A stretch of 64,000 nt of DNA. It comes from an uncultured virus (IMG/VR IMGVR_UViG_3300033121_001188) (taxonomy: Duplodnaviria > Heunggongvirae > Uroviricota > Caudoviricetes). The notes under the pieces were generated by a model. The model was not told where the DNA came from. It saw nothing but the letters and a program-made list of their open reading frames with translations, and searched no databases. Within the stretch, counting starts at the first letter, position 1. The number at the start of each line of letters is the position of its first letter. The position numbers and the translations under genes were made by a program. This document shows, piece after piece, positions 1-56,898 of the stretch. The DNA is taken from IMG/VR virus record IMGVR_UViG_3300033121_001188. The stretch is one strand, 5' to 3'.

Positions 1-960
1 TACTGGCTACTTAATAGGTGTTACCTATATTATTTGCACTAAAAATGAAAATTAGAGCACCATAATATATGGTTATTTATTTTTTTATACTTATACTTCC
101 CACTTCCTTGGGGAAGGGGGTTAGGGGGTTGGGGCTACAGTACACAATGTATACTACATATATATACTACATAATAACTACACACTATAGATAGCAGGTA
201 GTAAGCCATATGTGGTTCGTGGTATATAGTTTTTGGATAGGAGAGTGTGTGGTATAGATGAATGTCTGGTAGTGGATAAGAGAATATAAGTGAGTGGAGG
301 CTATATATATACACTACTCCTATGGGTATCCACCCCCTCCCTCTCACAAGCTACCCGTACACCTATCCAGTATATGCTTACTGCTATTATCTTTTATTGC
401 TGGAGGGTTGCTATTGTTTTGCTGGTGTGGTAGGTATACCATGCAAGGGTTAACGTGTCTCATTGGTTTGGTTTTACTTTGCATAAGGTTTATTGTTGTG
501 CAAGGTAGAGTTGTTGAGCGTGGAAAGTGTAGAGCCTCTATCATCTATACTTTATCTATCATATATCTATCTATCATCCATCTATACTCCAGCATACATC
601 TATCATCTATCTATCGTTTGTTTACTTAGTATACTATAATACACTATCTATCCTATAACTACTACCATTATCTAGTACAGTATGATAACTATTAGTTATA
701 CCATTGTCAAGTATTATTGACTGATTTACTTGCATTTTTTTTCATTATCATTATCATTAGATTGTTGATAGTGATACACTGCTAGTCTTGCCAACTCGCT
801 AGAGCGTACATTACACAAGCGGTACTATTGCTATCAACTACCTATATATAGATATAAGTATCTAATCAATAGATTGATACGCTCTATATATACACTATAC
901 ATATTGCATTACAATATTGCAGTAGTATATTAGTATCAATATTATTTATCCTTTGTCAAT
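1..960. other. Long non-coding, low-complexity region, possibly near the genome terminus or packaging site
   Basis: No convincing ORF. Contains G-runs at 110-134, a G-rich to C-rich switch near 300-345, (TCTA/TCA)n repeats at 537-615 and hairpins. Lies just before the first early genes. Confidence 0.45.
682..710 (-). promoter_or_regulatory. Leftward sigma70-type promoter
   Basis: Minus strand TTGACA-N17-TATCAT; inverted repeat ATAACTA-T-TAGTTAT at 685-699 overlaps it. Confidence 0.6.
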
Positions 961-966
961 TATCTA

Positions 967-1194
967 ATGAAGTCTATTGTTTGCGCTCTTGCGCTTATGG
1001 TTTCCCTATTGCCTGCTTTATCGTTTGCAAGTGTTTCAAAATGTGAGGCGCAAAATAATCTATATAATGTATATATCAGATATATAGCAAAACAAGCGCG
1101 CCAATCTAGCGACTTTGATAGTTTAGCTATGCAACTAAAAATCATCAATACATATAAAAATAAAATTGTCAAGTGTAGTAATTTGACAAAATAA
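967..1194 (+). CDS. Small protein with a signal-peptide-like N-terminus
   Basis: 75 aa, hydrophobic N-terminus ending SFA. Confidence 0.55.
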   Translation: MKSIVCALALMVSLLPALSFASVSKCEAQNNLYNVYIRYIAKQARQSSDFDSLAMQLKIINTYKNKIVKCSNLTK

Positions 1195-1247: not shown

Positions 1248-2114
1248 ATGAATGCAAACATTGCAAAAATCGTAGACAAAATTATGGAAGTAATGCAAAA
1301 CCCGCCGCAACGAAAAAGAGTTTGGAAGTACGCAAACTGAAACTATAACCTTGTAAGCGGTAAACAATACCATGGGATTAATGCTTTTGCAACTGGTTTA
1401 TCAAGACTAGAGAATTGATACACTAGCCCCGCACGAGTAACCTACAAACAAGCAACAGAGCTTTGAGGCAATGTAAAAAAAGGCGAAAAAGCTACTATTG
1501 TTATACGGTCAAGCCCTATAGTAAAACTAGAAAATGGTAATCCTGTCACTAATGCAGATGGTGAAAATGAATTGCTACGGACATACAAGGCATACTTTGT
1601 TTTCAACCTAGACCAATGCGACAACATACAGTCACCAGCAATAGTTGAGCCTACAGTACAAATAGAGCCTATAGATTTTTGTGAAAATGTAGTCAATCAA
1701 TACATCTCCAGCGAGTGAATAACACTTGTAGAGTGAAACGATTGACGTTGTTATTATGTACCTAGTCAAGATAAGATAAGCATGACGCCAATAAAACTAT
1801 TTGATAGTGCAGAGGCTTACTATAGGGTACTGTTTCACGAGATGATACATAGTACAGGAGCGCCACAACGTCTAGCCCGCAAATTGGAGGGTCAAATGAA
1901 TACGTTTGGTAGTTATGAATATAGCGTGGAGGAATTAGTGGCAGAGTTTGGGAGCGCTATATTGTCAGAGGTTGTTTGAATTGGTGCAGATGTCAATAAT
2001 AGTGGAGCTTATTTAGGCAATCGAGTACAAAAAATAAAAGAGACTAAAAGACAGCAGGAAGTATATCGAGCTATACAGAGAGCCACAAAGGCAGTTGATT
2101 ATATTACAAAATAA
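1248..2114 (+). CDS. ardC: ArdC-like ssDNA-binding/antirestriction protein with C-terminal zincin (MPTase) domain
   Basis: 288 aa recoded: PQWKRVW..NLVSGKQYHGIN..WVTYKQA..GGNVKKGEK; HEMIHSTG..RLAR..FGS..YSVEELVAEFGSA..AYLGNW. Confidence 0.9.
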
Positions 2115-8622: not shown

Positions 8623-10436
8623 TATTTATCATTATATTTTACACATGAAAAGACTATTATTACTACTATCAATTACGCTATCGTTCTGATTTGTGTTTGC
8701 ATTCGAATGCACCAACTGATACCGAAAAGACGGTCAGTGTTATCTGAATGATAACACAGGGTATTACAAATTCTATAAGACACAGCAATGTAAAGAGCAT
8801 GTCTTCCAGCTAGAAGACGAGGCAAACAAAAATAGAATGCGTAAAGCTATCAATGACCTAGACAAAGAAATAGACAGGCTCATAGAAATGAAGGCAAGAC
8901 TGCATGAAGATTTGATGTTTCTTCCAAAGATAACGAGTACAGTCATCAAGTGTACTGAAATAGAGGAGAGTATATTTATACCAACTGCAGTGAAAACAAT
9001 AACCAAAATCAAGTATAGATTGCCTATTACATGAGTAAGCAGATAGACCATGAAAAGATATTTTTGGAACGGTGAGCCAATCACAAGTTATTGGTTTATA
9101 TACCATTCAATAAGATTTCGCTCTACACCAAAAAGATCTGGTACCGTATACTTTGGCAGTAAGTGACATATTCAATGGGATATAAATATCCTAGCTCCGC
9201 CGTGATGGGAACCACCAGCTATTGAAATTGTACAAAGAGATGCTTTTATATCAGTACTACAGACGACATTCCCGAATTGCCAGTGCGTAGAAACTATATG
9301 TGACAATCGGGCAAAAGAACGGGAAAAAAAGAAAGAAAAATTATTATATGACGAGCTACAGTTTATTCCATGATCCTGACAATACAGACAGACGTTGAAA
9401 GCATTAGCAGAGATAGAGAAGTGACCGCGAACGGATGACGTAGAGGTAACAAAGCGCATAGTATCGGCATACATCAGACACAATGAAACAAACTACGACG
9501 ACTTATACAATACGTATAACGAAAAAGAAAAAAACCGCGCAATAGTACATGACAGAGTACAATATATATTCAAGTCTCGAGCTTGAACTTGGAAAGAAAA
9601 AACTATTTAACTCTATAAATTCGCATTGCAAAATGAAAAAGAAAAGCTACACTATCTATAGTTCCCAAAAAGAACTAGACCCGCAAAAGTATCAGAAGTT
9701 CCCTTGAATGTCCGCATTATACTGCCTGTATAAAGACTATCGGGAAGCATATTTGGCGCTCAAAGAAGCAAGCCCACAAGCTAGTGACGAAAGCATTAGA
9801 CAGGCTGCGTTCCAGCACATACTTACATGCTCGCCAGCTTTATCTATTAAAAGAATGACATAATGTATACATTTGACAGCTGGCAAGACGCCATAATATT
9901 TGTTGTTCTATTACTTATCCACCTAGTTCTATAATGACAAAAAAAAGAAAAGAAACGGCTGAACAGCGAATTGATAATAATATGGAGGCACTGCTAGAAA
10001 AGTTCTCCAGTTGATTTTGGGATTTTGCCATGCTCAGTTATCGCACAGTACACAAAAATAAAATATACCACGAGTCGTGGTTCGAAGAAGACAAGAAGAA
10101 AAAAGCAGAGCGATATAAATATGCGTTGAGATACTACGTCTATAAGAAGAGATATGGATTAGACGACCCAAGAACGATAGAAGCTAAAAAATTGATACCT
10201 ATTTATCCAAGAAACAAAGATGATAAATAAACTTTTTACGGACAAGAATTACAAACCAAGCGACGACGAAACTAAAAATCTATTGAAAGAGCTATTTGAT
10301 GAATTGCATTGAGACCATACGTTATCGAAAGAGGAGTCATCAATGTTAGATAAAGCAAGATGACACAAACTATGTCGGTGTGGTCAAAGAGTATCAAACG
10401 AGACAGACAGATGCGCTTTACACTTTAACACATAAT

Positions 10437-11789
10437 ATGGATAAACTAATAGAAAAATGACTACGCCTATGCCAAGAGCTAGGATGAAAAAGCTATATCG
10501 TATGATGAGCTGTAAGGGATATGCTTATGGGCGCAGAAATACACGACGTAGACATTGCTACTAATATCAGTATAGAAGAGATAGAGAGTAAGTTGGACAC
10601 GGTAAATATAGGTAAGAACAAGGATTTCTGAATAGTTGTAGTAAACTTTGAGTGAGATATGTTTGAAGTAGCACACTTTAGAAAGGATGGCAAATACTCA
10701 GATAATAGAAGACCAGACGATGTCGAATTAGTCGATAGTTTGGAGGATGACTTGGCACGTAGAGATTTCACAATCAATGCTATGGCTTACGATTGAACTA
10801 CAGTCATAGATTTGTTTGGAGGGCAGGACGATATTAAAAAATGAATTATTAGATTCGTAGGAAAGGCAGAAGATAGAATAGCGGAGGACGGACTAAGAGT
10901 ACTGAGAGCGTATAGATTCGCAGCAAGATTCAAATTCCAAATCGTAGATGAGCAAGAGATGACCTGATGGAAGCCTGTATGAGTAGCCCAAGAGAGGGTT
11001 ACTGAGGAGTTCAGAAAGGTTGCATCTTATTGACCAAAAGCCCTAGCATTCTATCTCCATAGAACATCATGGAATCAAATTTATAGCTACGGATTTAGTC
11101 GTATGTCTTGAATGCCACACCATATCAAGCATCATCCAGAGGGAGACGTATTTGAGCACACGATATCCTGCCTATCTCATGCAAGTGAGTATAGCGAGCA
11201 AGGATACTTAGCTGCCCTTTGTGTTGCCTTCCACGATATAGGTAAGATTGTAACAGCCGAGTATAAAACAGACGACTTAGACATAGGGTATTGTACATAC
11301 TATGGACACGACATACAGTGAGCTATCCTTATGAATGACATATGACCTAAGCTCAAGTTATCTAGTGATGAGATAAAAGCCATACAATTCGTATGCCAAT
11401 ATCACATGATACGATGGGAGTTCAAAAACCTCAAAGAATCTAAGAAGCTGGAGATAGCAAGAAGCCCATACTATCCTCTACTAGAATACACCACTCACGC
11501 AGATGAGATGAGCAGATTGTATCTAGCAGACTATGAGAGACGGTGCGATATTGCTGCTTATGTACAGTCATGGAAGACAGAGAGAGATTGGCTTGCAAAT
11601 TACGATGAAAAAGTTAAACTACTAATAGATTGAAATATGATTAAGGAGTATATACCAAATATCAAAGACAAAGATATAGGTATACTCAAAAAGGCAGCAC
11701 TAGAGTTCATAAACGATAATTCCATGCTAGTAGACAAAGAGCAAGTAAAACAATTTATCCTTAACCTGACTGGAGATGCCAATTCCTAA
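10437..11789 (+). CDS. cca: CCA-adding tRNA nucleotidyltransferase with HD domain
   Basis: VGGAVRD, DVDIAT, EDDLARRDFTINAMA, EDGLRVLRAYRF, HHPEGDVFEHT, FHDIGK, YGHD. Confidence 0.92.
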
Positions 11790-12508: not shown

Positions 12509-13117
12509 ATGCTTAATAACTTTTATAATTACCCTTGGAGATTCAAGGAAGGCGAATTCTACTTCATTCAAATAATTCGCAGAGCAAAGGATCAGAGTGT
12601 CATAACGGCACAAAAGTGAGACAATAATCAAAGACTGATTAACTCGTATTACATATATACGCAAGAACAACTAGACCTCAGAATGGATGAAATGATAGCT
12701 ATTGCAGACGCAACGGTTTCTAGAGTCATGGTGCACCCAGCCCGCAGAAACAAAATGGAAATAGCAAAACTGACGCAATACCTACTAGCACAGAATATGT
12801 ATAGCAATACGATAGACGGTATCAGCAGGATATACAATACTGCATGTTGAACAAGTCGCGGCGTAGAAAGATTGCGGTTGATAGATGTAGACGGGGAGAA
12901 TGCCTTCGACTTAGCCAAAGATATAATATTTGACATAACAACAACTGGCTTGTATTGAGTGCAGGAGCGGGAAAACTATATCTTACCAACCAAAAACTGA
13001 TGTCATATTATTTGCAAACCATTTAATAGCAAAGTATTTAGCGAAAGATTTCCTTGAGTTGATATACATAAAAATAACCCAACCGTGCTTTATATCCCAG
13101 ACACACCATGAAAATAG
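12509..13117 (+). CDS. Conserved phage protein, possibly AEP (primase-like) fold
   Basis: FYFIQIIRRAKD..WLIDVD..PTKNGCHII..IHKNNPTVLY (DxD and GxH motifs). Confidence 0.55.
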
Positions 13118-13788
13118 TTGCAATATGAGACATACATTGATTAAGTACACGAAAGGACATTCTAGAAAAGGAAAAGGATTTCGACCTTTGTGTTTTTATA
13201 GGAGACTATTTTGATAATAGGGACGGCATATCTGGGGCCGACGAAATAGAAAACTTCAAAGAAATTTGCAAGCTCTCCAAGAACGATAAAAGAGTGGTAC
13301 TGTTATTGGGAAATCATGATCGGCATTATATGCTATGAGCCACACAACGTTTTTCTTGATATAGGTCAGTACAGTCATTACTTGCTTGACCCATACTATC
13401 TGCCATGCGGAATAACTTAGAGATAAGGCCACGATACATAGTTGATGACATTATATTTAGCCACGCATGACTAACAAACACACGAGCAAATAAACACAAT
13501 ATAGACATACAGGAATACACACAAGACGACATGCTGTTTAGTGCATTGGCATTTCAGCATACGGATGAGCACGACGTATCTGGGACAAGTATCAACCAGT
13601 GACCCTTGCGAGTAAGACCGTGATATGTATGATATTATCTATATCACCCCGTCCATTTCAAGCAAGTCGTGGGACATACTAGAACGCCAGAAATATATAC
13701 TAAAGACTGAGTCACGCATATAGACGCACTACGGAACGGTAAATACCTAGTAATAGAGGATTGATTATTTATTCCCAAGACAATATAA
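13108..13788 (+). CDS. Calcineurin-like metallophosphoesterase
   Basis: GDIHG, GDYFD, GNHD, SHAG, GPLWVR, QVVGHT. Confidence 0.9.
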
Positions 13789-13965: not shown

Positions 13966-15213
13966 ATGTATCAGGCAATTATTGGAAGATTAACAAGGGT
14001 TAGACAGCACCCAAATGCTGATAGACTACAACTGGCCACAGTTTTCTGAAGCCAAGTTGTCGTTTCTACAGAGCAGAAAGAAGGCGATCTTTGAATTTAT
14101 TTCCCACCAGACTGAAGGCTTGGCGAGAGACTTTGTCAAATCAATGACCTAGTTAGAAGAAAAGACGAGCACGGAAACAATGTTTGATGAATGTTCGACG
14201 TCAATAGAAAGGTAAGATGCCAAAAGTTTAGGTGAGAAAAATCGGAATGATTTTGGTCTCCAATTGAATCATTAAGCTATCTCTGAGATATAGAGCGAGA
14301 GGAGGGTCAAATGATCGATAAGATTTGAGACGAGGTAATCTGTGAAAAGTTTTTCAATAAAGCAACGTTAGCGGCCGCCAGTGGGAATAAACAACGCAAA
14401 TGATCGTTGCCCACATTCCCAAAGCACGTTGATACAGAAAATATCAAATACTATCGGGACGATATAAAAAAATGAGACATCATAACAATAACGTCCAAGC
14501 TACATTGAACATCTGCCAGAAGCGGAAACACGTTCGTAGAAAAAAAGCAAAATCGATTCATGAGAATGCTCTGATTTAAGGATACTTTTGTTACTGAGTT
14601 TTTGAACTGAAGCAGGAATGTTATTCTTGCCGATGGCAAACAAGATGGATTTTACAACAGTAATTTTAGAGATAAGGCAGCTAAGCTATTTAGGGATTGA
14701 AGAAAGTGAGAGATATTTTTCTACGAAATAGTGTGATATGAGGGAGACTGAACTATCATGCCAAGAGTAGATATAAAATCCCTAGATAAGGACACGCAGA
14801 AAGACTTGAGGGATGCATGAATGCCAGAAGTAATGACATACCACTATTGATGCGCTCCTTGAACGTCCGAAGTCTATGTATATAGGATAGCAATGGTTAA
14901 TGAAGACGGTCATATGATTGAATATCCACGAAACGAAGTAAAGGCAAGATGCAATCAACTTGGCATTAAACACGTACCAGAGCTGTATCAGGACGTATTC
15001 AAGGGGAATGTCGACGTATTGCAAAAGAGAGTCAATAAACTCCACGACGGACCAGACACAATAGGTAAAACGCACCGAAGAGAGTGAGTGGTTATAAGAG
15101 TAGACAGAGCAAACTGATGAACAGAGTTCTATAAAGCTAAGAACTTTATATTCCTGTCATTAGAGTCGGCACAAAAGGATACAGACGCCGTTGATACAGA
15201 AGAAGCCAGTTAG
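13966..15213 (+). CDS. ATP-dependent RNA ligase with N-terminal OB fold (DRB0094/Rnl2-like)
   Basis: HPNADRLQLA, RGEKSEG, FPKHVDT, SKLHGTS (motif I), YEIVG, HVPEL, EGVVIR, YKAKN. Confidence 0.85.
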
Positions 15214-15403: not shown

Positions 15404-16273
15404 ATGAAATCAATAATTTTACGCTGATTGCCTGGTATAGGTAAGTCTACATGGGCTAGAGCGCAAGAAGGATACAAAATAATAAGTCTTGATAACATTA
15501 GAAAAGAATATCCTTATATGAAAGAGTGGCAGGTCCACGACGAGCAGGCAAATCAAATACGCTTTGAATATAATTCATACAACGATATTATCGTCGACAA
15601 CACCCACATGAGTCAACAGGCTCTAGATAGTATCAAGGCGTTTTGCGAGTCCGTTGGATACGAAGTTTCTGTCAAAGATTTTATGGCAGAAGAATCATCC
15701 CCACGAAACGCGCACGCAAAAGCAACTGTTCAGAATCAGATCAGAGTTGAAAGAGTACCCCAATCCGTGATAGACAGAATGTTTTTATGAGCCTACAATA
15801 CATCGGTGGATGAGTGAAGAGATAAGATATATATATTCGATATAGACGGAACAATAGCAAATATAGACCATAGACTTCACTATGTAGAATGAGATAAAAA
15901 GGATCGGCACTCATTCTTCTGCTGTCTGCACGAAGACAAGCCATACAAGGCCGTTGTGAATGTAATGAATCACTTAGCTAACGACTTGAATGCCACAATT
16001 GTACTAGTAAGTTGAAGACCAGATAAGTATGACCTTGAGACGGAAAGACGATTACAAAGAAATAATATACCATACGATTACATTCTCATGAGGAAGTCAC
16101 GAGATAAAAGACCAGACACAGAAGTAAAAGAAGAAATATATCACAGATGCCTAGAAAAAGAAAAAGAAAAAATAGTTTGTGTATTTGATGATAGGCAACG
16201 TCTTATAGATATGCGAAGAAGTAAATGATTATATGTATTTAACTGTTCACAAAAATTAGATAATAACTTTTAA
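15404..16273 (+). CDS. pnkp: Polynucleotide 5'-kinase/3'-phosphatase (T4 PseT-like)
   Basis: RGLPGIGKSTWA P-loop, IVDNT; HAD domain DIDGT, VSGR, MRK..D.RPD..VK, VFDDR. Confidence 0.92.
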
Positions 16274-20648: not shown

Positions 20649-20667
20649 ACATACGTTATTATAAGAT

Positions 20668-20799
20668 ATTGGTTGTTGATATAAAGGGTTACTTCGCCTG
20701 TAACGAACGGATATGGGTTCGAATCCCATTGCGCTGCCGCAAGGTGGCATATAGCTTAACGGTAGAGCAGTAAAATACTCTTTATGCCATTACACCAAT
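20668..20799 (+). ncRNA. YrlA-like Y RNA 2 with permuted tRNA-like domain
   Basis: ATTGGT/ACCAAT stem, TGTTGA, GTTACTTC, T arm ATGGG-TTCGAAT-CCCAT, GCAA-capped acceptor-like stem, then D arm GCTT-AACGGTA-GAGC. Confidence 0.8.
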
Positions 20800-20814: not shown

Positions 20815-20930
20815 AGAGGCTGTTGACCAAACAGTTACTTCTGCTAAGAATTATTGGTTCGAGTCCAATAGTATACCTCGGTATACTTAGCCTAATTGGT
20901 AAGGCAATCTCTGTTTTACTTTACGCCTCT
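20815..20930 (+). ncRNA. YrlA-like Y RNA 3 with permuted tRNA-like domain
   Basis: AGAGGC/GCCTCT stem, TGTTGA, GTTACTTC, T arm ATTGG-TTCGAGT-CCAAT, AGTATAC-CTCG-GTATACT stem, D arm GCCT-AATTGGTA-AGGC. Confidence 0.8.
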
Positions 20931-20953: not shown

Positions 20954-21178
20954 ATGACAAAATGTATGTTATGTCTATCTTTGACTCCTAACTCCATCCA
21001 TTGTGACAATTGCATACTGAAATATGACAGATGCAATTGTGGCTTGAGACCAGATTTCGTTATAGACGAACATCCATATTGCACAGAGTGTGCCGATGAT
21101 ATAATTGATGTGCGTCAGTTTGCAACAATACTTGTCATAACTTTATTAGTTATTGTATTTATATCATTCTTCTTATAG
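20954..21178 (+). CDS. Small Cys-rich membrane protein
   Basis: Several CxxC/CxC pairs and a C-terminal hydrophobic helix. Confidence 0.6.
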   Translation: MTKCMLCLSLTPNSIHCDNCILKYDRCNCGLRPDFVIDEHPYCTECADDIIDVRQFATILVITLLVIVFISFFL

Positions 21179-21179
21179 C

Positions 21180-22523
21180 ATGAGATTCCAAGCAGAAGCT
21201 TTGGCGAAAACAACAGTTAATCATCAATGATGAACTTCATACGTACTAGAACCAGAACAAGAGCTGGTTAAGCTTGCGTTGACATCCTTTTGGGACAAAT
21301 CGTTTTATGAAACAATGAGCGATAAGTTAGAGTCGCTAAGAGACTATTGCTCAAAAGTACCAACTCAGTTTTTGTTAAAGCTGGCGGTGCGGGCTAGGGG
21401 TAAATGACTAAGGACAGTAAACCAATGTATGCTCATAGAGTGATTAAAGGATAAGGATTTTGTACACGCATCTCAATCGTTAGTTCAAAGACCAGACGAA
21501 CTATTAGACATGGTATGATATTATGCTCTGATAAATCAACAGCATCCAGACAAGTTAGTGTTAGCTAACAAGTTAAAAAAGGCCATCAAAAATAAACTAG
21601 AATCATTTAGTGAGTACCAGCTTTCTAAGTATAAGGGCAAAGGTAACGTAATAAACCTATACGACTTAGTTAATCTTACGCACGCCTTCTCTCCAGCCAT
21701 AGACAAACTGATGAAATGAGAGCTCGCTCCAGCAGATACATGGGAAGTAGAGCTGTCTAAAAATGGAAACACAATAGAGAGTTGGACAAGACTATTGCAG
21801 GAGGACAAGCTATGAGCGCTTGCCTTCATAAGAAACCTGAGGAATATGATACAGGTATGAATATGACACGATGTTCTTGTTTCTTACTTGTCAAAAGTTG
21901 ATTTTACAAAACTCTTTCCGTTCCAGACAATCCAATCTGTAGACGTATGCGTCAGAGAATGCACGCTGTCAACCAAGTCTCCTCTGTACAAAGCTTTGGA
22001 AGAAAAAATATATGAGAGTTTTGTCAACTTCGCAAAACTGTTCAAAGGCAAGGTAGCTGTTGGCGTGGATATTTCGTGATCTATGAGCTATGCGATCAAT
22101 GAGAAATCGCAATTGCGCAGAAAGACATTAGCTGCTTACTACGGTATGGGGCTCGAGCACTACGGAGCAGATTTATATGCATGGTGAACAGAGTGTTTTC
22201 GCGCAGATAACTGTACTATAGATGACTTCAATATGAAATGATGATGATGAACCGATATAAACTGTTTGCTAAATTGAATAAGGGGCGAGTGATACGATAC
22301 CTTATTTGTTATAACTGACGAACAATCATCAACACCTATGTGATCGTCAGATGTGCCAAACATTATCGTATGGAACATAGCGGACTATAGGCACTCACTT
22401 ATACCGAGCTTTGATAAAGGATATACATACATCACTGGGTTTAATGACGCTCAATTCGAGTTAGTTGATGATCTCAGAGATATAAAATGATTAGTAAAAT
22501 CAATAAATTCTTTATCATATTAA
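21180..22523 (+). CDS. rsr: Ro60/TROVE-domain RNA-binding protein with vWA domain
   Basis: TVNHQGGTSY, QRPDEL, FSEYQLSKY, DLVNLTH, TWEVELS, ALAFIRNLRN, FPF, VDISGSM (MIDAS), GGGTD, ITDEQ. Confidence 0.92.
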
Positions 22524-27131: not shown

Positions 27132-27431
27132 ATGAAAATACGATTAGATGACGTAAGATTTCCACCAGATGAGCATCGGGAAGAAGCAAGAACGCCAATG
27201 GATTTCTATAGACTAATTACCAAAAATATAGAACTAGTAACACAGGTCTCATTTGATCATGATTTATGAGTAGAACTAACATGATATGATTGCTTGGACT
27301 GGATGCTAAAAACATATAGGTTAGCATGAATAAAACCACCAGCCATAAAACTTCACACAGCTAATCCAGTATGAGAAGACAGGATGAACAGACTGCTGGA
27401 CGAACGATGAGACAAGATTATTAGACTATAA
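27132..27431 (+). CDS. Cyclic-phosphate-processing receiver (cREC)-like domain protein
   Basis: KIWLDDVRFPP..W..SFDHDLG..TGYDCLDW..HTANPVG..RM. Confidence 0.8.
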
Positions 27432-27467: not shown

Positions 27468-27896
27468 ATGACAGGACTATCTGCACAAATGTACGGAGAT
27501 CTAAAAACTATTGCCATAAATCTAAGCGCAATATTCACAGAAAAACTTGCACCAGCAATCAATAGCGGAGCAGTTATAACAAAGGATTATGTACTTGATC
27601 TGTTCGGCAGATATATACAGTATTCTATAACGCTAGATATAATTACGATATTGTGAATTATAGCGCTTTTTGCTTTCTTGCCCTCATGGCGAAAGAAAGT
27701 ACAAGCATTTGATAAAACAAACCCAGAAGACGACGGGTGAGCAATTGTACTTTTTATTATTTTTGCTGTTTTTTCTGTGTTTGTGTGAACGTTTGTTTTA
27801 TGACACACTATTGAACATCTTGCCCAAAGCATATTTATACCAGAGCTAACCATATATGAGAAAATAGTAGAGCTGAAGGAGCAGAAGAGCCAGTAG
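27468..27896 (+). CDS. Membrane protein
   Basis: Two hydrophobic segments after TGA readthrough. Confidence 0.6.
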
Positions 27897-28552
27897 TATT
27901 ATAAATTATATATTAGTAATTCTATACCAACTGCCATGCATAAACTAAACGAAATATTGCAATATATAAGGGAAATAAAAAAAGTTGCTACTGTGCATGG
28001 TCTGAACATGAGCCCAATAATATTGGACTTTTCTGGTTGATTACAGCATACTAAGGTAAAGACATACTGAATAAATGTACTCGTAGACAACGCCATGGCA
28101 AAACAGATAAAAAATATTACAAAGCCCATGCTGTTGCCAATAAGCGCAGAGGAGAGAGTAGACACACTAATTGCCGATATTACAAAGTAATTTAATTATA
28201 ATAATACAACAACACATGAAAGTAAATTGGAAAGAGTTATTTATTGCGGTTGGGGTGTATGGGTTTTTTTATGTTGTTTATAAACTTATCGGCTTCGAGG
28301 CGCTTACTGTCCTTCTTTTAACAAGCATAGTGTGGAAACTATCGTTACCGATCCAAGCTAAAAAACAGGTCGTGTCAAAAGAAAACGAACTGACTGATAT
28401 GCTGCTTGATGTTATTGACCATCCAAACGACTATCCTATGCTTGACCTAGAGTACGATATTCGACCAGACTGAAGCATTACAGAGATTGTGATAAGGGTA
28501 AAAGAAAAATAGGATAACACAAGCGACGATACGGATACAGCACATTAATAAT

Positions 28553-28653
28553 GGTTGATGTAGCTCAGTAGTAGAGCAATGCAAAAAGGTATCGGGGTTT
28601 TCAAACTTCTTCCCATTAGCAAGTGTTGCAGGTTCGAGCCCTGTCATCAACCA
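28553..28653 (+). tRNA. tRNA-like RNA with an enlarged anticodon arm (identity unresolved)
   Basis: GGTTGATG/CATCAACC acceptor, D arm GCTC-AGTAGTA-GAGC, T arm GCAGG-TTCGAGC-CCTGT; about 36 nt between TGC and GCA. Confidence 0.7.
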
Positions 28654-29022
28654 ATAAACTATATTATGTATAAATATTTATTATCAAAAAATACATGCAT
28701 CGATTCTGGGCACTGTTACTATGATTATTTGTTTGAGCATATATTGGCATACTTTCTGCGCTAGGTGCATACTACGACATGAGAATGCAATACTGGGATT
28801 GTCAAATACAGTATAGTAATCGCATAGAATTTCAGTCATGATTTGCAGAACGGCTTTTCCAAAAGTAAACATTTATCCTATACGTAGCTATGGAATATAA
28901 TTATTATAACACAAACTCTTTTGTCAAGCTTATGCAGTATGCAAAGAATCTAATAATTACCTATTGCAAATGGTATTTTTTTGTTTATACTGATAACATA
29001 TATTTATATCTCGAGCAGTCCA

Positions 29023-31080
29023 ATGTTCCATCCTATTCACATCAACACAACTAGTTCAAATCAGCACAACAGCACTCATTATGTATTTGTACTAGATAAC
29101 TCATGATCAATGAGCTGATCAGTCTCTCAAATGAGGACTGACCTCAAAAACAAATTGTCTACACTAGTAAAGCCAAAAGACTTGGTTACAATATTAACAT
29201 TCTCATCTGCATGAGACGTTAGGACAGTTGTTGCTGGTTGGGATATATCTGATGTTAGTAACGATACAAACATACTACATAAAGCAATCGATGAACATGT
29301 ATCAGCAAGAAGTCTCACGTGTTTCGATGAAGCACTCGATCTTGCATGTAAACTAATTAGCTGATATAGTCAATATAATACATCTGTATTGTTTTTGACA
29401 GACGGTTATCATAATAACTGATGATCTAGAAAAACGGTTATAGACATTGTTACAGCACTGTCTAAACTTGCAAATAACTTTACTGTTGCGGAATATGGAA
29501 CATACTGTGACCATTCTTTTTTGTGCGACATGGTTGAGGCAGCTGCGCAACACACTGTGTCTAATCTCATATTCCAAGAGAACGTTAGATATTTTGAACC
29601 AGTATTAGATTCTTTCACAAGCTGAAAGGTATTTTCAAATTTGAGAGTAGAGATCGATGTTCCTAATTCAAATATTCCATTTGTGTTTGCGTGAGAACAG
29701 AGATTTAACGTTGTAAATTGAAAGGCAATAGTCCCAGCAGACATTTGATGCGTATACGGTTTTAATCTTTATGAACCATTGCAAACAGAGGAAGATACAG
29801 ATCGTCTATATGCTTTGTGTTTCCACCTAGCACAAACAAGATCCATTGATCTTCTATACCAAGCCATAGAAAAACTTGGAGATATGTTCTTATGAGAGAT
29901 CGTTTGTAATTCGTTTGGAGTTGAATTCACAAGAGCAACAGAATATATCCGTCAATGCATCACTGACAAGTCGCTAAGACGAAAGAAATGATCTCAACCA
30001 CAATGAGCAGTGCCAGCTCCAGATGCTTTCTGCGTATTAGATCTCTTATCACTGCTGCAGGATGGAGATTGTATGCTTTTCCCATGACATAAAGACTTTT
30101 CATATAATGTTATCAGCAGGAAAAAAGTACAACGTTCTACACTATGAGAAGACGGACAACAGCCATATGAGCTAAAGTTTGTAAACAGCGATCCAGACAA
30201 GGGCTATTCATTAAAAGACTTGGTATGGAAAAAGGACAGAGCAAATATCTCTATATCTATTACTTATAGAGGGTCTGTTGACGTATCACACGTGCCATGA
30301 AATACTTACTGAATATCAGAAGTACCAACATATACTGTTAGAAATTATGCTATCATTGCAGACGGTAGGAAAAATATTACTACTCTACCAGTTTCTGTTG
30401 ACTTCGCTACGTACAAAATACTGTTTGAAGAATGAGTAATATCTGATGTCAATTTTGAGGAATGAAAGATATTCACTATAGACATTTCGAATATTCCAGT
30501 TATAAATAGGCAGATGGTGGCAGAGGTATCGGCAGCCAAATTAGCAGCACTATCTGTTGACGAACTAAAACTGCAAGCAGGTAGTAAGGTCATTAAATAC
30601 TTGCTAAAACAAAGATGAATAGAAAAAGAAAACCCATACGAAAAAATATATAGTGAAGAGGTTACAAGTTGGCTGAAGTCTATTTGATTTGATCATAATG
30701 GATTTAATCCAAAAATGGTTGGTCAAGAATCTACAGACTATTATGTTGCCCAAGTTGTTAATTGTAAAATAGCAAAATTCAGTTCGCTGCCAAAGGTAGA
30801 AGAATGTATTAGTAAGTGATGAACGCCGTCTAAGGATATGATCCATGCGTTGTATAATATGGCATCTGCATTGACCGATGAGGAACTCAAACAAGGCGCA
30901 GAAATCATAGAAGACAGCAGAAAAAAGATACAAAAACAAATAGCGACTATGACGTTCTCTCTTATCGTTGGTCAGAATTGATTCTCGGACTATGCTGAGT
31001 GAGACGCGGTAAGCATTGTTAAAGACGGCGAAACATTCAATGTATCCATAGAGGTTGAGGAAGAAAACATTATTATATAA
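29023..31080 (+). CDS. Large vWA-domain protein, 685 aa
   Basis: FVLDNSGSMS (MIDAS), LTCF, LFLTDGY; upstream TTGCAA-N16-TATACT. Confidence 0.8.
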
Positions 31081-55323: not shown

Positions 55324-56898
55324 TTAGTCGTCGTTGAGGTCAACATCTCCAGTAAGACCATCACATGTTGCTGGGTCTGTAGTAAGCATTGTAAGTGCAG
55401 TTGCACAAGTAGTTGCGTCACACATAGCTTTTGATTGGAAGTTAGTAACAAATTGATAAGCTCCGCTTCCAACATGTTTCCAGATTGAAGCAAATGTAAA
55501 GTTACCGATCATTTGAGTACAATCTGAGTGTCCAAGCGTTGCTTTGTTTACGTCTGCATTAGAGTAGAGTTCAACAGTTGGCATACCCTTGTTGTAAAGA
55601 GCTTCGATCTTACCGCCAGTTTGTGTAACACCTGCAATAGGCATTTGGTGGATAGAGAACATGCTCTTTGGGAAGAAGAAGAATACGCTATCATTGTCGA
55701 ATACAGCATCTAACAATTGAGAATGAACAAATGTGTATGTCAACCCCATGTAAGTGAAATACTGCCATCCTCTGTTGTTGTAAACAATTCTTTCTGTTTC
55801 GTTAGTGATGTCTCTGTAAAGAAGACCACCGTTTCCGAATTTTTCTCTAATTGCTTCATTCATGTCCCAGATAGCTTGCATAGCTTTGCTAGAGGCCCAA
55901 ACTACTACTTCTTCTCCGTTGTTGTACACACCAGAGTTCTTGATAGGAGTAAGTACTGCTCTTATAAGCTCTTGCAAAATATCTTCATCACATGTTGCAG
56001 ATGCACAGCACGCGTTAAAGTTGTGGAGGAATGTACCACATCCAGCGTCTTGCAATACTTGCATTTCGTTGAAGATACCCATTGTTTCAGCACCGTAATC
56101 AGTTGCAGAAATAGTTCTCTTAGGAATGTTTCTGTCGAAAATGATCTTGTTTGCTAATTGAATGTTGAAGTCAGCGATAACTGGTCATACAATCTCTTGG
56201 ATGTAATCAGAAATTTGGTCGCCGCTTTCGTTGTGGTATCTATGTCTATCGAGGTTAAGATCACAGATAGTGAAGTCGATACATACAGGAATTCTAGTGA
56301 AGTAAGAATTTTTCTTGATACTCTTGTAAGTGTATCTTGAAGTAGAGCAGTAAGTGTTTGTACAGTCACCAATAACACCAGTTTTACCAACCTTAGTAAT
56401 TGTGTCTCCTGCTGCCAAAGTTACAGCGCTGTCAAGAACGATTGTAGTTGGAGCAATTGCATCTGGAGTAAGATTTGATACTACTCTGAAGCTGATTGTT
56501 CCATCTGCTTTCTTGATTCTAACTTTGTCTCCAATGCTTAAACCGTTGAAGTTGTCATAAGAATCGATTTTTGATACTAGTACATTCGCAGTTGCTGAGA
56601 TTGTAGCAGTAACAGTTGCTTTAGAGAACATAGGTGTGTATGGTCTTTCGTACCATGTAAGTGCACAACATTTGTTAACCATCCATTCTGCTTTTGCGTC
56701 AAATGGAAGTCCTCTCATTTTAATTGTAAACATTGTTTCGCCGTTTTCCATAACTTCTGCATACGGATCGAATGCAAGATAGTTAATGTCTGGGAAAAAG
56801 CTTTGTGTAAGCGTAAATAAAGGCAAGCCTTCCTCTTGGAACGAATTCTGTAACTCGGTCCAGTCAAAACTTGCTACGCAGCTTTCGTTTGCTGACAT
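55324..56898 (-). CDS. Major capsid protein, 524 aa
   Basis: Two track ORFs joined by one TGA (56185-56187); follows scaffold and portal; ETMGI motif; biased codon use. Confidence 0.8.

Follow-up and report, generated by a model that had tools for sequence, protein, structure and literature searches.

A tRNA-shaped RNA gene with an irregular anticodon side in an uncultured phage that uses TGA as a glycine codon

When a phage gene has the acceptor stem, D arm and T arm of a tRNA and an outsized sequence in place of the anticodon loop, is it an unusual tRNA, the remains of one, or an RNA of another kind? The question is raised by a 101-nt element (28553-28653) in a 64,000-nt stretch of DNA from an uncultured virus of the Caudoviricetes (IMG/VR record IMGVR_UViG_3300033121_001188), referred to below, at its full length, as the window. 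A first-pass annotation made from the sequence had described a tRNA-like RNA with an oversized anticodon arm and had offered three explanations: an intron-containing tRNA processed by the phage's Pnkp and RNA ligase, a degenerate decoder of UGA, and a decoy or mimic. The last of these fits all observations and is the one we favor. Tentatively, and with somewhat less than even confidence, we propose that the locus is a real tRNA-derived gene for an irregular tRNA-shaped RNA, which would not decode in the ordinary way and would act through its acceptor/T-arm half.

The Rfam tRNA model (RF00005) matches the window at 28554-28652 (+) with 43.1 bits against a gathering score of 29 (E 7.8e-6 per 64 kb), so that the match exceeds chance and the overall fold passes as that of a tRNA; the alignment spans the whole model (positions 1-71), and RF00005 is the sole Rfam family to reach its gathering score within the 64 kb. 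The acceptor and T arms, the hairpin at 28594-28609 and the TCA inside it are as first annotated (Table 1). Acceptor (8), D (4) and T (5) stems together hold 17 pairs, all of them intact and either standard or G-U, and the acceptor/T branch measures 8 + 5 = 13 bp, against 12 bp (7 + 5) in a canonical decoding tRNA. The T loop, UUCGAGC, fits the UUCRANY type. The D arm (28563-28577), which had been called canonical, does have a 4-bp stem and a 7-nt loop, but in the Rfam alignment an A stands at the model's first G of the conserved GG, which the alleles of both relatives described below, X2 and L015, possess. Past the acceptor stem come A28653 and ATAAAC, and CCA is not encoded. Perfect T-arm hairpins occur only three times on both strands of the 64 kb, all three in non-coding DNA. 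The whole 101 nt fold better than their shuffles (z -2.52), a surplus that is due to the outer helices. ARAGORN in its default mode calls no tRNA in the whole window, and neither a promoter-like site directly upstream of the element nor a terminator was found. An open reading frame (ORF) of 61 aa that starts inside the element (28579-28764) was rejected, as its start is deleted in the X2 allele.

What lies between the D and T arms? The Rfam alignment sets 36 nt against nine model positions (the last anticodon-stem pair and the loop) and marks the 27:43 pair as non-standard, and to this extent the description of an oversized anticodon arm stands. Its structure is another matter: the inner 50 nt, folded alone, reach -6.1 kcal/mol (z +0.15), and 107 of 200 shuffles fold equally well or better, therefore the oversized arm is not demonstrably a structured domain. 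With the outer helices fixed, the best fold is a single long broken arm of -26.8 kcal/mol, which runs through 3 bp, a 1x1 loop, 2 bp, a 2x2 loop, 2 bp and a 4x2 loop into a 6-bp stem GGGGUU/AACUUC with a UUCA loop. A second layout, architecture B, combines a mini-hairpin (28579-28592), the hairpin 28594-28609 and a variable-arm-like hairpin (28614-28625), and at -26.5 kcal/mol it is only 0.3 kcal/mol worse. The hairpin 28594-28609 can itself be paired in two ways, either as a 4-bp stem, two pairs of which are G-U, with an 8-nt loop that contains UUUCAAA, or as the 6-bp stem GGGGUU/AACUUC with its UUCA loop. Canonical decoding geometry, in which a 7-nt loop (U33, purine at 37) sits on a 5-bp anticodon stem placed 1 nt past the D stem, is lacking in the region. 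Searched within the window as an antisense guide or as a repeat, it gives 10-mers as its longest matches, no better than shuffles do.

Among public sequencing runs, one, probably the source, contains the stretch in full and two contain it in part, none of the three being an RNA run. Only two relatives of the element were found, on a contig in run X2 and on the phage contig L015. The X2 contig (472 nt, depth 4.2) aligns to 28551-28925, from which it differs by 15 substitutions and the loss of 26 letters, and the deletions all lie inside 28570-28624. Because it was found through the flanks and not through the tRNA, the X2 allele is an unbiased sample. Both of its acceptor strands and its D stem are identical to those of the window; G28628>A turns the 49:65 pair from G-U to A-U, and C28639>T alters a T-loop base. 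The 272 nt downstream carry 3 changes, the flanks are 1-4% diverged and the VWA gene of this close relative differs by 2-4%; upstream of 28551 the sequence is unlike that of the window. Rebuilt computationally, the X2 allele comes to 75 nt, and its 9-nt D loop includes GG. ARAGORN reports it as 'tRNA-???(aacg)' with an 8-nt loop, and its minimum-energy fold puts a 4-bp stem and a 4-nt loop at the anticodon-arm position. The inner region is 26 nt shorter than that of the window and unalignable with it.

L015 is a complete phage of 90,425 bp, recovered again as L021 and L149 in pattern scans. Its allele has the same 8-bp acceptor, is identical to the window at 27 of 28 bases over the T arm and the 3' acceptor strand, and carries the 11-nt upstream motif. 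The pattern by which it was found demanded the T loop, the 3' strand of the T stem and the 3' acceptor strand; the independent observations are only the 5' acceptor strand, the 5' strand of the T stem, the D stem and the upstream motif. The inner region has only a CCATTA...TT stretch before the T stem in common with the window, and the D arm is quite different; we take it to resemble that of a long-variable-arm tRNA such as tRNA-Leu. The anticodon stem has four pairs and a C-C mismatch, and its loop, CUAAAUC, holds an AAA anticodon, which to our knowledge bacteria do not normally use. ARAGORN calls the 86-nt gene, which has a long variable arm, 'tRNA-Phe(aaa)'. The window's hairpin 28614-28625 is placed like the variable-arm hairpin of L015, and CCAUUA starts both; in one possible alignment the hairpin 28594-28609 would correspond to the L015 anticodon arm CGGG-CUAAAUC-CCCG. 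Over the 6-kb locus in L015 no other similarity to the window is detectable. The same cluster holds a second irregular tRNA at 924-1001 (+), which also has an 8-bp acceptor followed by C and CCA; ARAGORN reads a 2-base anticodon there, and it can also be drawn with an 8-nt loop.

The 3' end of the L015 allele settles how the acceptor is to be read. There an unpaired C comes after the stem and CCA is encoded next, as it is at the ends of the seven neighbouring tRNAs, and therefore the first G:C is an eighth stem pair with a separate discriminator and not a His-type G-1:C73. The acceptor had been read either as 8 bp or as 7 bp with a His-like first pair and no encoded CCA; the 8 bp and the missing CCA hold, and the His-type pair does not. 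A bacterial tRNA-His is rejected on the same unpaired C before CCA, and also because there is no GTG in 28578-28627.

Wider scans added no further allele. The T arm, TGCAGGTTCGAGYCCTGTC, occurs in 80 phage loci (L026-L105), 55 of them ordinary tRNAs under 20 ARAGORN labels and 25 uncalled, and being generic across the 20 labels it was rejected as a family marker. Several of the 25 uncalled loci look like truncated or rearranged tRNA-like genes. Pattern scans gave five loci in metagenome contigs, of which one is real (the L015 contig) and four are chance, and a single chance locus in genome contigs. The upstream motif together with the 5' acceptor strand occurs at 31 loci in viral contigs, with a tRNA-like gene only on the L015 contig; the neighbouring VWA protein, used as bait in viral contigs, brought up no relatives. 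Among cultured phages, blastn found no match to 27500-29500, and for the element alone 20 marginal matches (E 0.03 or worse), none of which covers 80%. Thirteen phage tRNA loci with 45-65 nt between D arm and T loop are real and heterogeneous; none is homologous to the element, and they have no neighbour gene in common. Matches to the tRNA model of 92-111 nt with an oversized D-T interval are seen at L001/L004, L002/L013, L003/L007, L005, L006, L009 and L011/L012: in L001 a C(UUCG)G tetraloop tops a stem of 6 bp, L009 has a 5-bp stem that leads through an internal loop into a 7-bp stem ending in UCAU, and L005 has an 8-bp stem with a 22-nt loop.

Taken together, the three alleles keep every acceptor and T-stem pair around three unrelated, non-canonical inner regions. 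The 13-bp branch and the separate discriminator are common to all three, therefore the irregularity is a family trait and not a recent accident at this locus. Such a pattern fits selection on the top half of the molecule with a bottom half that would be free or swappable, and it would favor a non-decoding RNA over a recently broken tRNA. The first-pass annotation had named an unconserved insert in homologs as a refuting outcome, and this check went against a conserved insert, as both relatives have quite different inner regions. The top half is intact and consists of the 8-bp acceptor stacked on the 5-bp T stem with its canonical T loop, together with a normal D stem. RNase P and a 3' nuclease would release the RNA from a longer transcript, and CCA would be added by the host's CCA-adding enzyme or by the phage's own (10380-11789); the L015 allele encodes its CCA. 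The mature RNA may then persist, by virtue of its acceptor/T-arm half, as a stable tRNA mimic. As to its role, the larger part of our confidence goes to an RNA that would compete for tRNA-binding or tRNA-attacking host factors or serve as a decoy for them, and the smaller part to a top half that would serve only as an RNase P/Z punctuation signal between two transcription units. The encoded discriminator and CCA of L015 speak for a mature tRNA-like end over a mere cutting site. For a conflict of this sort the phage carries a full tRNA-repair kit, comprising Pnkp, RNA ligase, a CCA-adding enzyme, cREC and Ro60 with Y RNAs; the Pnkp and ligase genes invoked in the first-pass annotation are both real.

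Several points weigh against this proposal. The alleles are just three, too few for a statistical covariation test, and part of the conservation in L015 was imposed by the search pattern. Of the three, the window's allele looks the most worn: the first G of its D-loop GG is gone, and the pairs G15-U48 and G49-U65 stand in place of G-C and A-U in X2, respectively. Family searches of the L015 phage gave no TROVE, no RNA ligase of the window's family (RNA_ligase) and a PolyA_pol match of only 14.3 bits; a tie to RNA repair is therefore not general to the family. Nor was any protein partner, target or constant neighbour gene found. Similarity breaks at the edges of the gene, in that X2 differs from 28551 leftwards and L015 has a left-flank motif that is absent in X2, therefore the gene is a recombination junction; the sharp break of X2 at 28551 could simply mean that tRNA-like genes are such junctions.

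Table 1. Coordinates of the element, its parts and other features of the window
Feature	Position	Strand	Remarks
Upstream motif, 11 nt, AGCACATTAAT	28539-28549	+	Same in L015 save a 3-nt indel before the acceptor stem; absent from X2
Acceptor stem, 5' strand, GGTTGATG	28553-28560	+	8 of 8 pairs with 28645-28652; same in X2 and L015
U8-A9 linker and D arm, GCTC/AGTAGTA/GAGC	28561-28577	+	From the Rfam alignment; U8 and A9 are 28561-28562
Inner region in place of anticodon arm and variable loop, 50 nt	28578-28627	+	Non-canonical, non-conserved
Hairpin GGGG-TTTTCAAA-CTTC (RNA: GGGG-UUUUCAAA-CUUC)	28594-28609	+	TCA at 28601-28603
Putative variable-arm hairpin, CAUU-AGCA-AGUG	28614-28625	+	In the unconstrained minimum-energy fold and in architecture B
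T arm, GCAGG-TTCGAGC-CCTGT	28628-28644	+	From the Rfam alignment; generic sequence among phage tRNAs of many specificities
Acceptor stem, 3' strand, CATCAACC, and unpaired A28653	28645-28653	+	L015 has the same 8 nt, then an unpaired C, then CCA
CCA-adding enzyme with HD domain	10380-11789	+	Domain/family searches
Metallophosphoesterase	13108-13788	+	Domain/family searches
RNA ligase	13966-15213	+	Domain/family searches
T4-type Pnkp, kinase and HAD phosphatase domains	15404-16273	+	Domain/family searches
Permuted tRNA-like module 1	~20664-20792	+	T arm 20713-20729; closed acceptor-like hairpin GCUGCC-GCAA-GGUGGC; D arm
Permuted tRNA-like module 2	~20815-20930	+	T arm 20853-20869; hairpin GUAUAC-CUCG-GUAUAC; D arm
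Ro60/TROVE protein	21153-22523	+	Pfam TROVE, E 3.5e-19
cREC (cyclic-phosphate-processing receiver) protein	27132-27431	+	Domain/family searches
VWA protein, full-length phrog_2426 member	29023-31080	+	E 1.3e-112; just downstream of the element

Could the element simply be a tRNA gene in decay? This is the main rival, and we consider it rather unlikely, though by no means far-fetched, that it is a functionless pseudogene, a former phage tRNA whose anticodon arm was lost by insertion or recombination and whose stems are intact through recency or through exchange with other tRNA genes. An inner region that is neither conserved nor more structured than shuffles agrees with decay, as do the missing first D-loop G and the tertiary and stem pairs that are weaker than in X2, the lack of a promoter-like site directly upstream and of a terminator, and the abundance of irregular tRNA-like genes in phage contigs, where 25 of 80 loci with the generic T arm get no ARAGORN call. 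Decay does not explain why all acceptor and T-stem pairs persist in three alleles, one belonging to a phage that is otherwise unrelated, while their inner regions differ completely, as neutral loss should strike the larger top half at least as often. Nor does it account for a non-canonical 8-bp acceptor common to the alleles and an upstream motif common to the window and L015. Far less probable is an intron-containing tRNA-Gly(CCC), from which an endonuclease would excise 28585-28609 and whose halves the phage's Pnkp and RNA ligase would reseal. A solution of this kind is indeed returned by the intron mode of ARAGORN (-i), with a 25-nt intron at the non-canonical position 32/33, and the window encodes Pnkp, RNA ligase and cREC. 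The call carries no information, because an intron tRNA is also called in 192 of 300 controls (64%) that differ from the element by shuffling of the inner 50 nt alone; of the ARAGORN check suggested by the first-pass annotation there remains no call in default mode and, by this control, an uninformative one in intron mode. When contiguous deletions of any kind were screened for a strict outcome (5-bp stem, 7-nt loop, U33), 0 solutions emerged. In the 'spliced' arm there is an A-A mismatch, position 26 is taken up by 2 nt, and the variable loop measures 6 nt. The insertion lies at 32/33 and not at 37/38, and the constrained fold has no bulge-helix-bulge (its loops are 1x1, 2x2 and 4x2, with no 3-nt bulges 4 bp apart). 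At 25 nt (the insert being 25-36 nt) the intron is far below the size of a group I intron, and no intron family matched 28400-28800 in an Rfam search at E up to 10. The tRNA-sized X2 allele lacks the same 'exon' sequence, and the inner parts are unalignable. The discriminator and the 2:71 and 3:70 pairs are, we presume, unlike those of bacterial tRNA-Gly.

Whether the element might read UGA depends on the genetic code of the phage. Long ORFs appear in the window only when TGA is read through. In the CCA-adding enzyme five of eight TGA positions fall on glycines in an alignment with a solved homolog, the GG of IVGGAVRD among them, and none of the eight falls on tryptophan. TGA makes up 228 of 408 glycine codons (56%) in + strand genes and 340 of 567 (60%) in - strand genes; since TGA is a glycine codon on both strands and arms, the phage uses code 25 throughout. 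Given that it is used alike in + and - strand genes, the host must read UGA from the start of infection, and a host that already reads UGA as glycine makes a phage-borne UGA reader unnecessary for a code switch. Gracilibacteria or Absconditabacteria are named as hosts with this code in passages of PMC10746230. A 524-aa ORF in the structural arm (55324-56898, -) has 1 TGA and 32 GGN codons, whereas in most other counted - strand ORFs TGA outnumbers GGN; it has no Pfam or PHROG match, and possible explanations are a capsid gene that is strongly expressed and shuns TGA, or recent acquisition from a phage with the standard code.

We therefore think it quite improbable that the element decodes UGA, or the four-base codon UGAN, in an unusual manner, with 28594-28609 as its true anticodon arm in architecture B. 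Under that reading 28579-28592 would be an extra mini-hairpin at the D/anticodon junction and 28614-28625 the variable arm. Architecture B lies within 0.3 kcal/mol of the long arm, its variable-arm hairpin is placed as in L015, past the common CCAUUA, the heptamer UUUCAAA is that expected for a UCA anticodon loop, and both the X2 allele and the second irregular tRNA of L015 (924-1001) can be drawn with 8-nt loops. Set against these are the 4-bp stem with two G-U pairs and its 8-nt loop, a 14-nt insertion at position 26 that would disrupt how the D stem stacks on the anticodon stem, the lack of an ARAGORN call without intron even at lowered thresholds, the equal use of TGA on both strands with a reader supplied by the host, and anticodon-position sequences that share nothing from one allele to another. 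A degenerate UGA decoder, as first suggested, is unsupported as a need and possible as ancestry. The least probable reading is that of a Y RNA partner of the phage's Ro60 protein. The TROVE gene lies on the same strand, tRNA mimicry is a trait of bacterial Y RNAs, and in Yrn1 of D. radiodurans D precedes T, as described in parts of PMC4201824. Far better candidates, the two permuted modules of Table 1, stand in tandem directly upstream of the Ro60 gene, on the same strand, each closed by a long terminal stem. Module 1 has a local Rfam YrlA match of 18.9 bits, far under the gathering score of 69, and module 2 folds with z -2.74; from their sequence they are probably Y RNAs of a diverged YrlA type, carried by a code-25 phage. 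Their arrangement is that described for YrlA (Chen et al. 2014, PMC4201824). With two YrlA-like modules beside Ro60, the element at 28553 is probably not its partner. The element lies 6.0 kb past the end of the TROVE gene, against the distances of at most 4 kb given for YrlA in the parts of PMC4201824 concerned, it is colinear with tRNA and not permuted, and no GNCGAAN0-1G motif occurs in or beside it (the nearest on the + strand are at 27688 and 29978). The Rfam YrlA model (RF02553) has no match in 28400-28800 at E up to 10, and the L015 phage has a homolog of the element and no TROVE gene. On these grounds the Y-RNA reading was rejected.

Returning to the non-decoding tRNA-shaped RNA, a more specific version of it can be imagined, in which the alleles belong to a cassette family of phage tRNA mimics with a constant handle and an anticodon-side bait, swapped between phages by recombination, for host nucleases directed at certain anticodon loops, here protecting the UGA-reading tRNA-Gly. 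The handle would be the 8-bp acceptor, the T arm and, in two alleles, the 11-nt leader, and it would allow processing, CCA-tailing and stability. The bait loop UUUCAAA would be that expected of the UGA-reading tRNA-Gly, which serves 56-60% of the glycine codons of the phage; the decoy would thus spare the least dispensable host tRNA, alongside Pnkp, ligase and CCA-adding enzyme. The idea is improbable as it stands.

How does the element compare with known systems? Phage T4 makes small, stable RNAs of unknown function, 'species 1 and 2' of its tRNA cluster, from tRNA-type transcripts, and the element may be akin to them in kind. Like the element, tRNA-Sec (RF01852) has an 8/5 branch, a UCA in a hairpin loop and a long variable arm, which the element possibly shares. 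Unlike tRNA-Sec, the element has a D arm of 4 bp and 7 nt instead of 6 bp and 4 nt, a discriminator A, and, in place of a 6-bp anticodon stem with a 7-nt loop, a UCA in an 8-nt loop on 4 bp. The T stem GCAGG/CCUGU is the same, we believe, as that of E. coli selC. A likeness of L015 to tRNA-Sec was rejected, since its 24.5 bits on the Sec model fall short of the gathering score (47) and of what ordinary tRNAs in its cluster reach. The irregular and tRNA-Sec-like long-acceptor tRNAs (allo-tRNAs, 8/4 tRNA-Ser and tRNA-His of phages, irregular tRNA polycistrons), as treated in sections of PMC5389517 and PMC7609411, resemble the element in the 8-bp acceptor, in their occurrence in phages and in their unusual anticodon regions. 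According to a portion of Mukai et al. 2017 (PMC5389517), some of them are inactive in translation and a regulatory or non-coding role has been proposed; extra loops and possible five-stem junctions, mentioned in the same portion, resemble architecture B. As described there, however, irregular and allo-tRNAs keep a 12-bp branch (8/4 or 9/3) and recognisable 7-nt anticodon loops, whereas the element has 13 bp (8/5), with the 49:65 pair kept in X2, and no such loop in the window allele. Of the marks of an allo-tRNA, the shortened T stem is lacking, the T stem here having five pairs, and a variable arm is seen in architecture B only. YrlA (RF02553) is, like the element, a non-decoding RNA with tRNA D and T arms and an acceptor-like stem, and is known in phages, as set out in parts of PMC4201824. 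By the same parts YrlA is circularly permuted (T arm, closed acceptor hairpin, D arm), and its RNA ends lie in the anticodon-side stem; the element, unlike YrlA, is colinear with tRNA, has open acceptor ends and D before T, and is without GNCGAA. The element belongs, judging from its sequence, neither to the irregular long-acceptor tRNAs nor to the YrlA mimics, its nearest described kin.

As for its surroundings, the RNA-repair set of the window is dense, among the fullest that could be hoped for, and full sets comparable to it are described for large phages in a part of PMC7824862. The VWA protein encoded next to the element has homologs of ~29% identity in 505 cultured phage records, including Kuttervirus and Slopekvirus, none with an assigned function, and in the cultured phages SFP10 and Miro no tRNA lies upstream of the homolog. 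The product of an ORF at 1248-2114 (+) is an anti-restriction protein of the ArdC-like kind, in which an ArdC N-terminal domain is joined by a zincin-like metallopeptidase domain.

Phage tRNAs are usually thought of as decoders, and non-decoding tRNA-shaped RNAs suggest other uses, as decoys, processing signals or partners of repair proteins. Phages that read TGA as glycine are still little studied. Even if the element is a gene in decay, it carries two lessons: tRNA finders in intron mode over-call such cases, as they do here for 64% of the shuffles, and a loop that contains UCA gives no ground for assuming that UGA is decoded. If, on the other hand, the reading of a constant handle with a variable bait is true, it would represent a new kind of RNA-based counter-defence.

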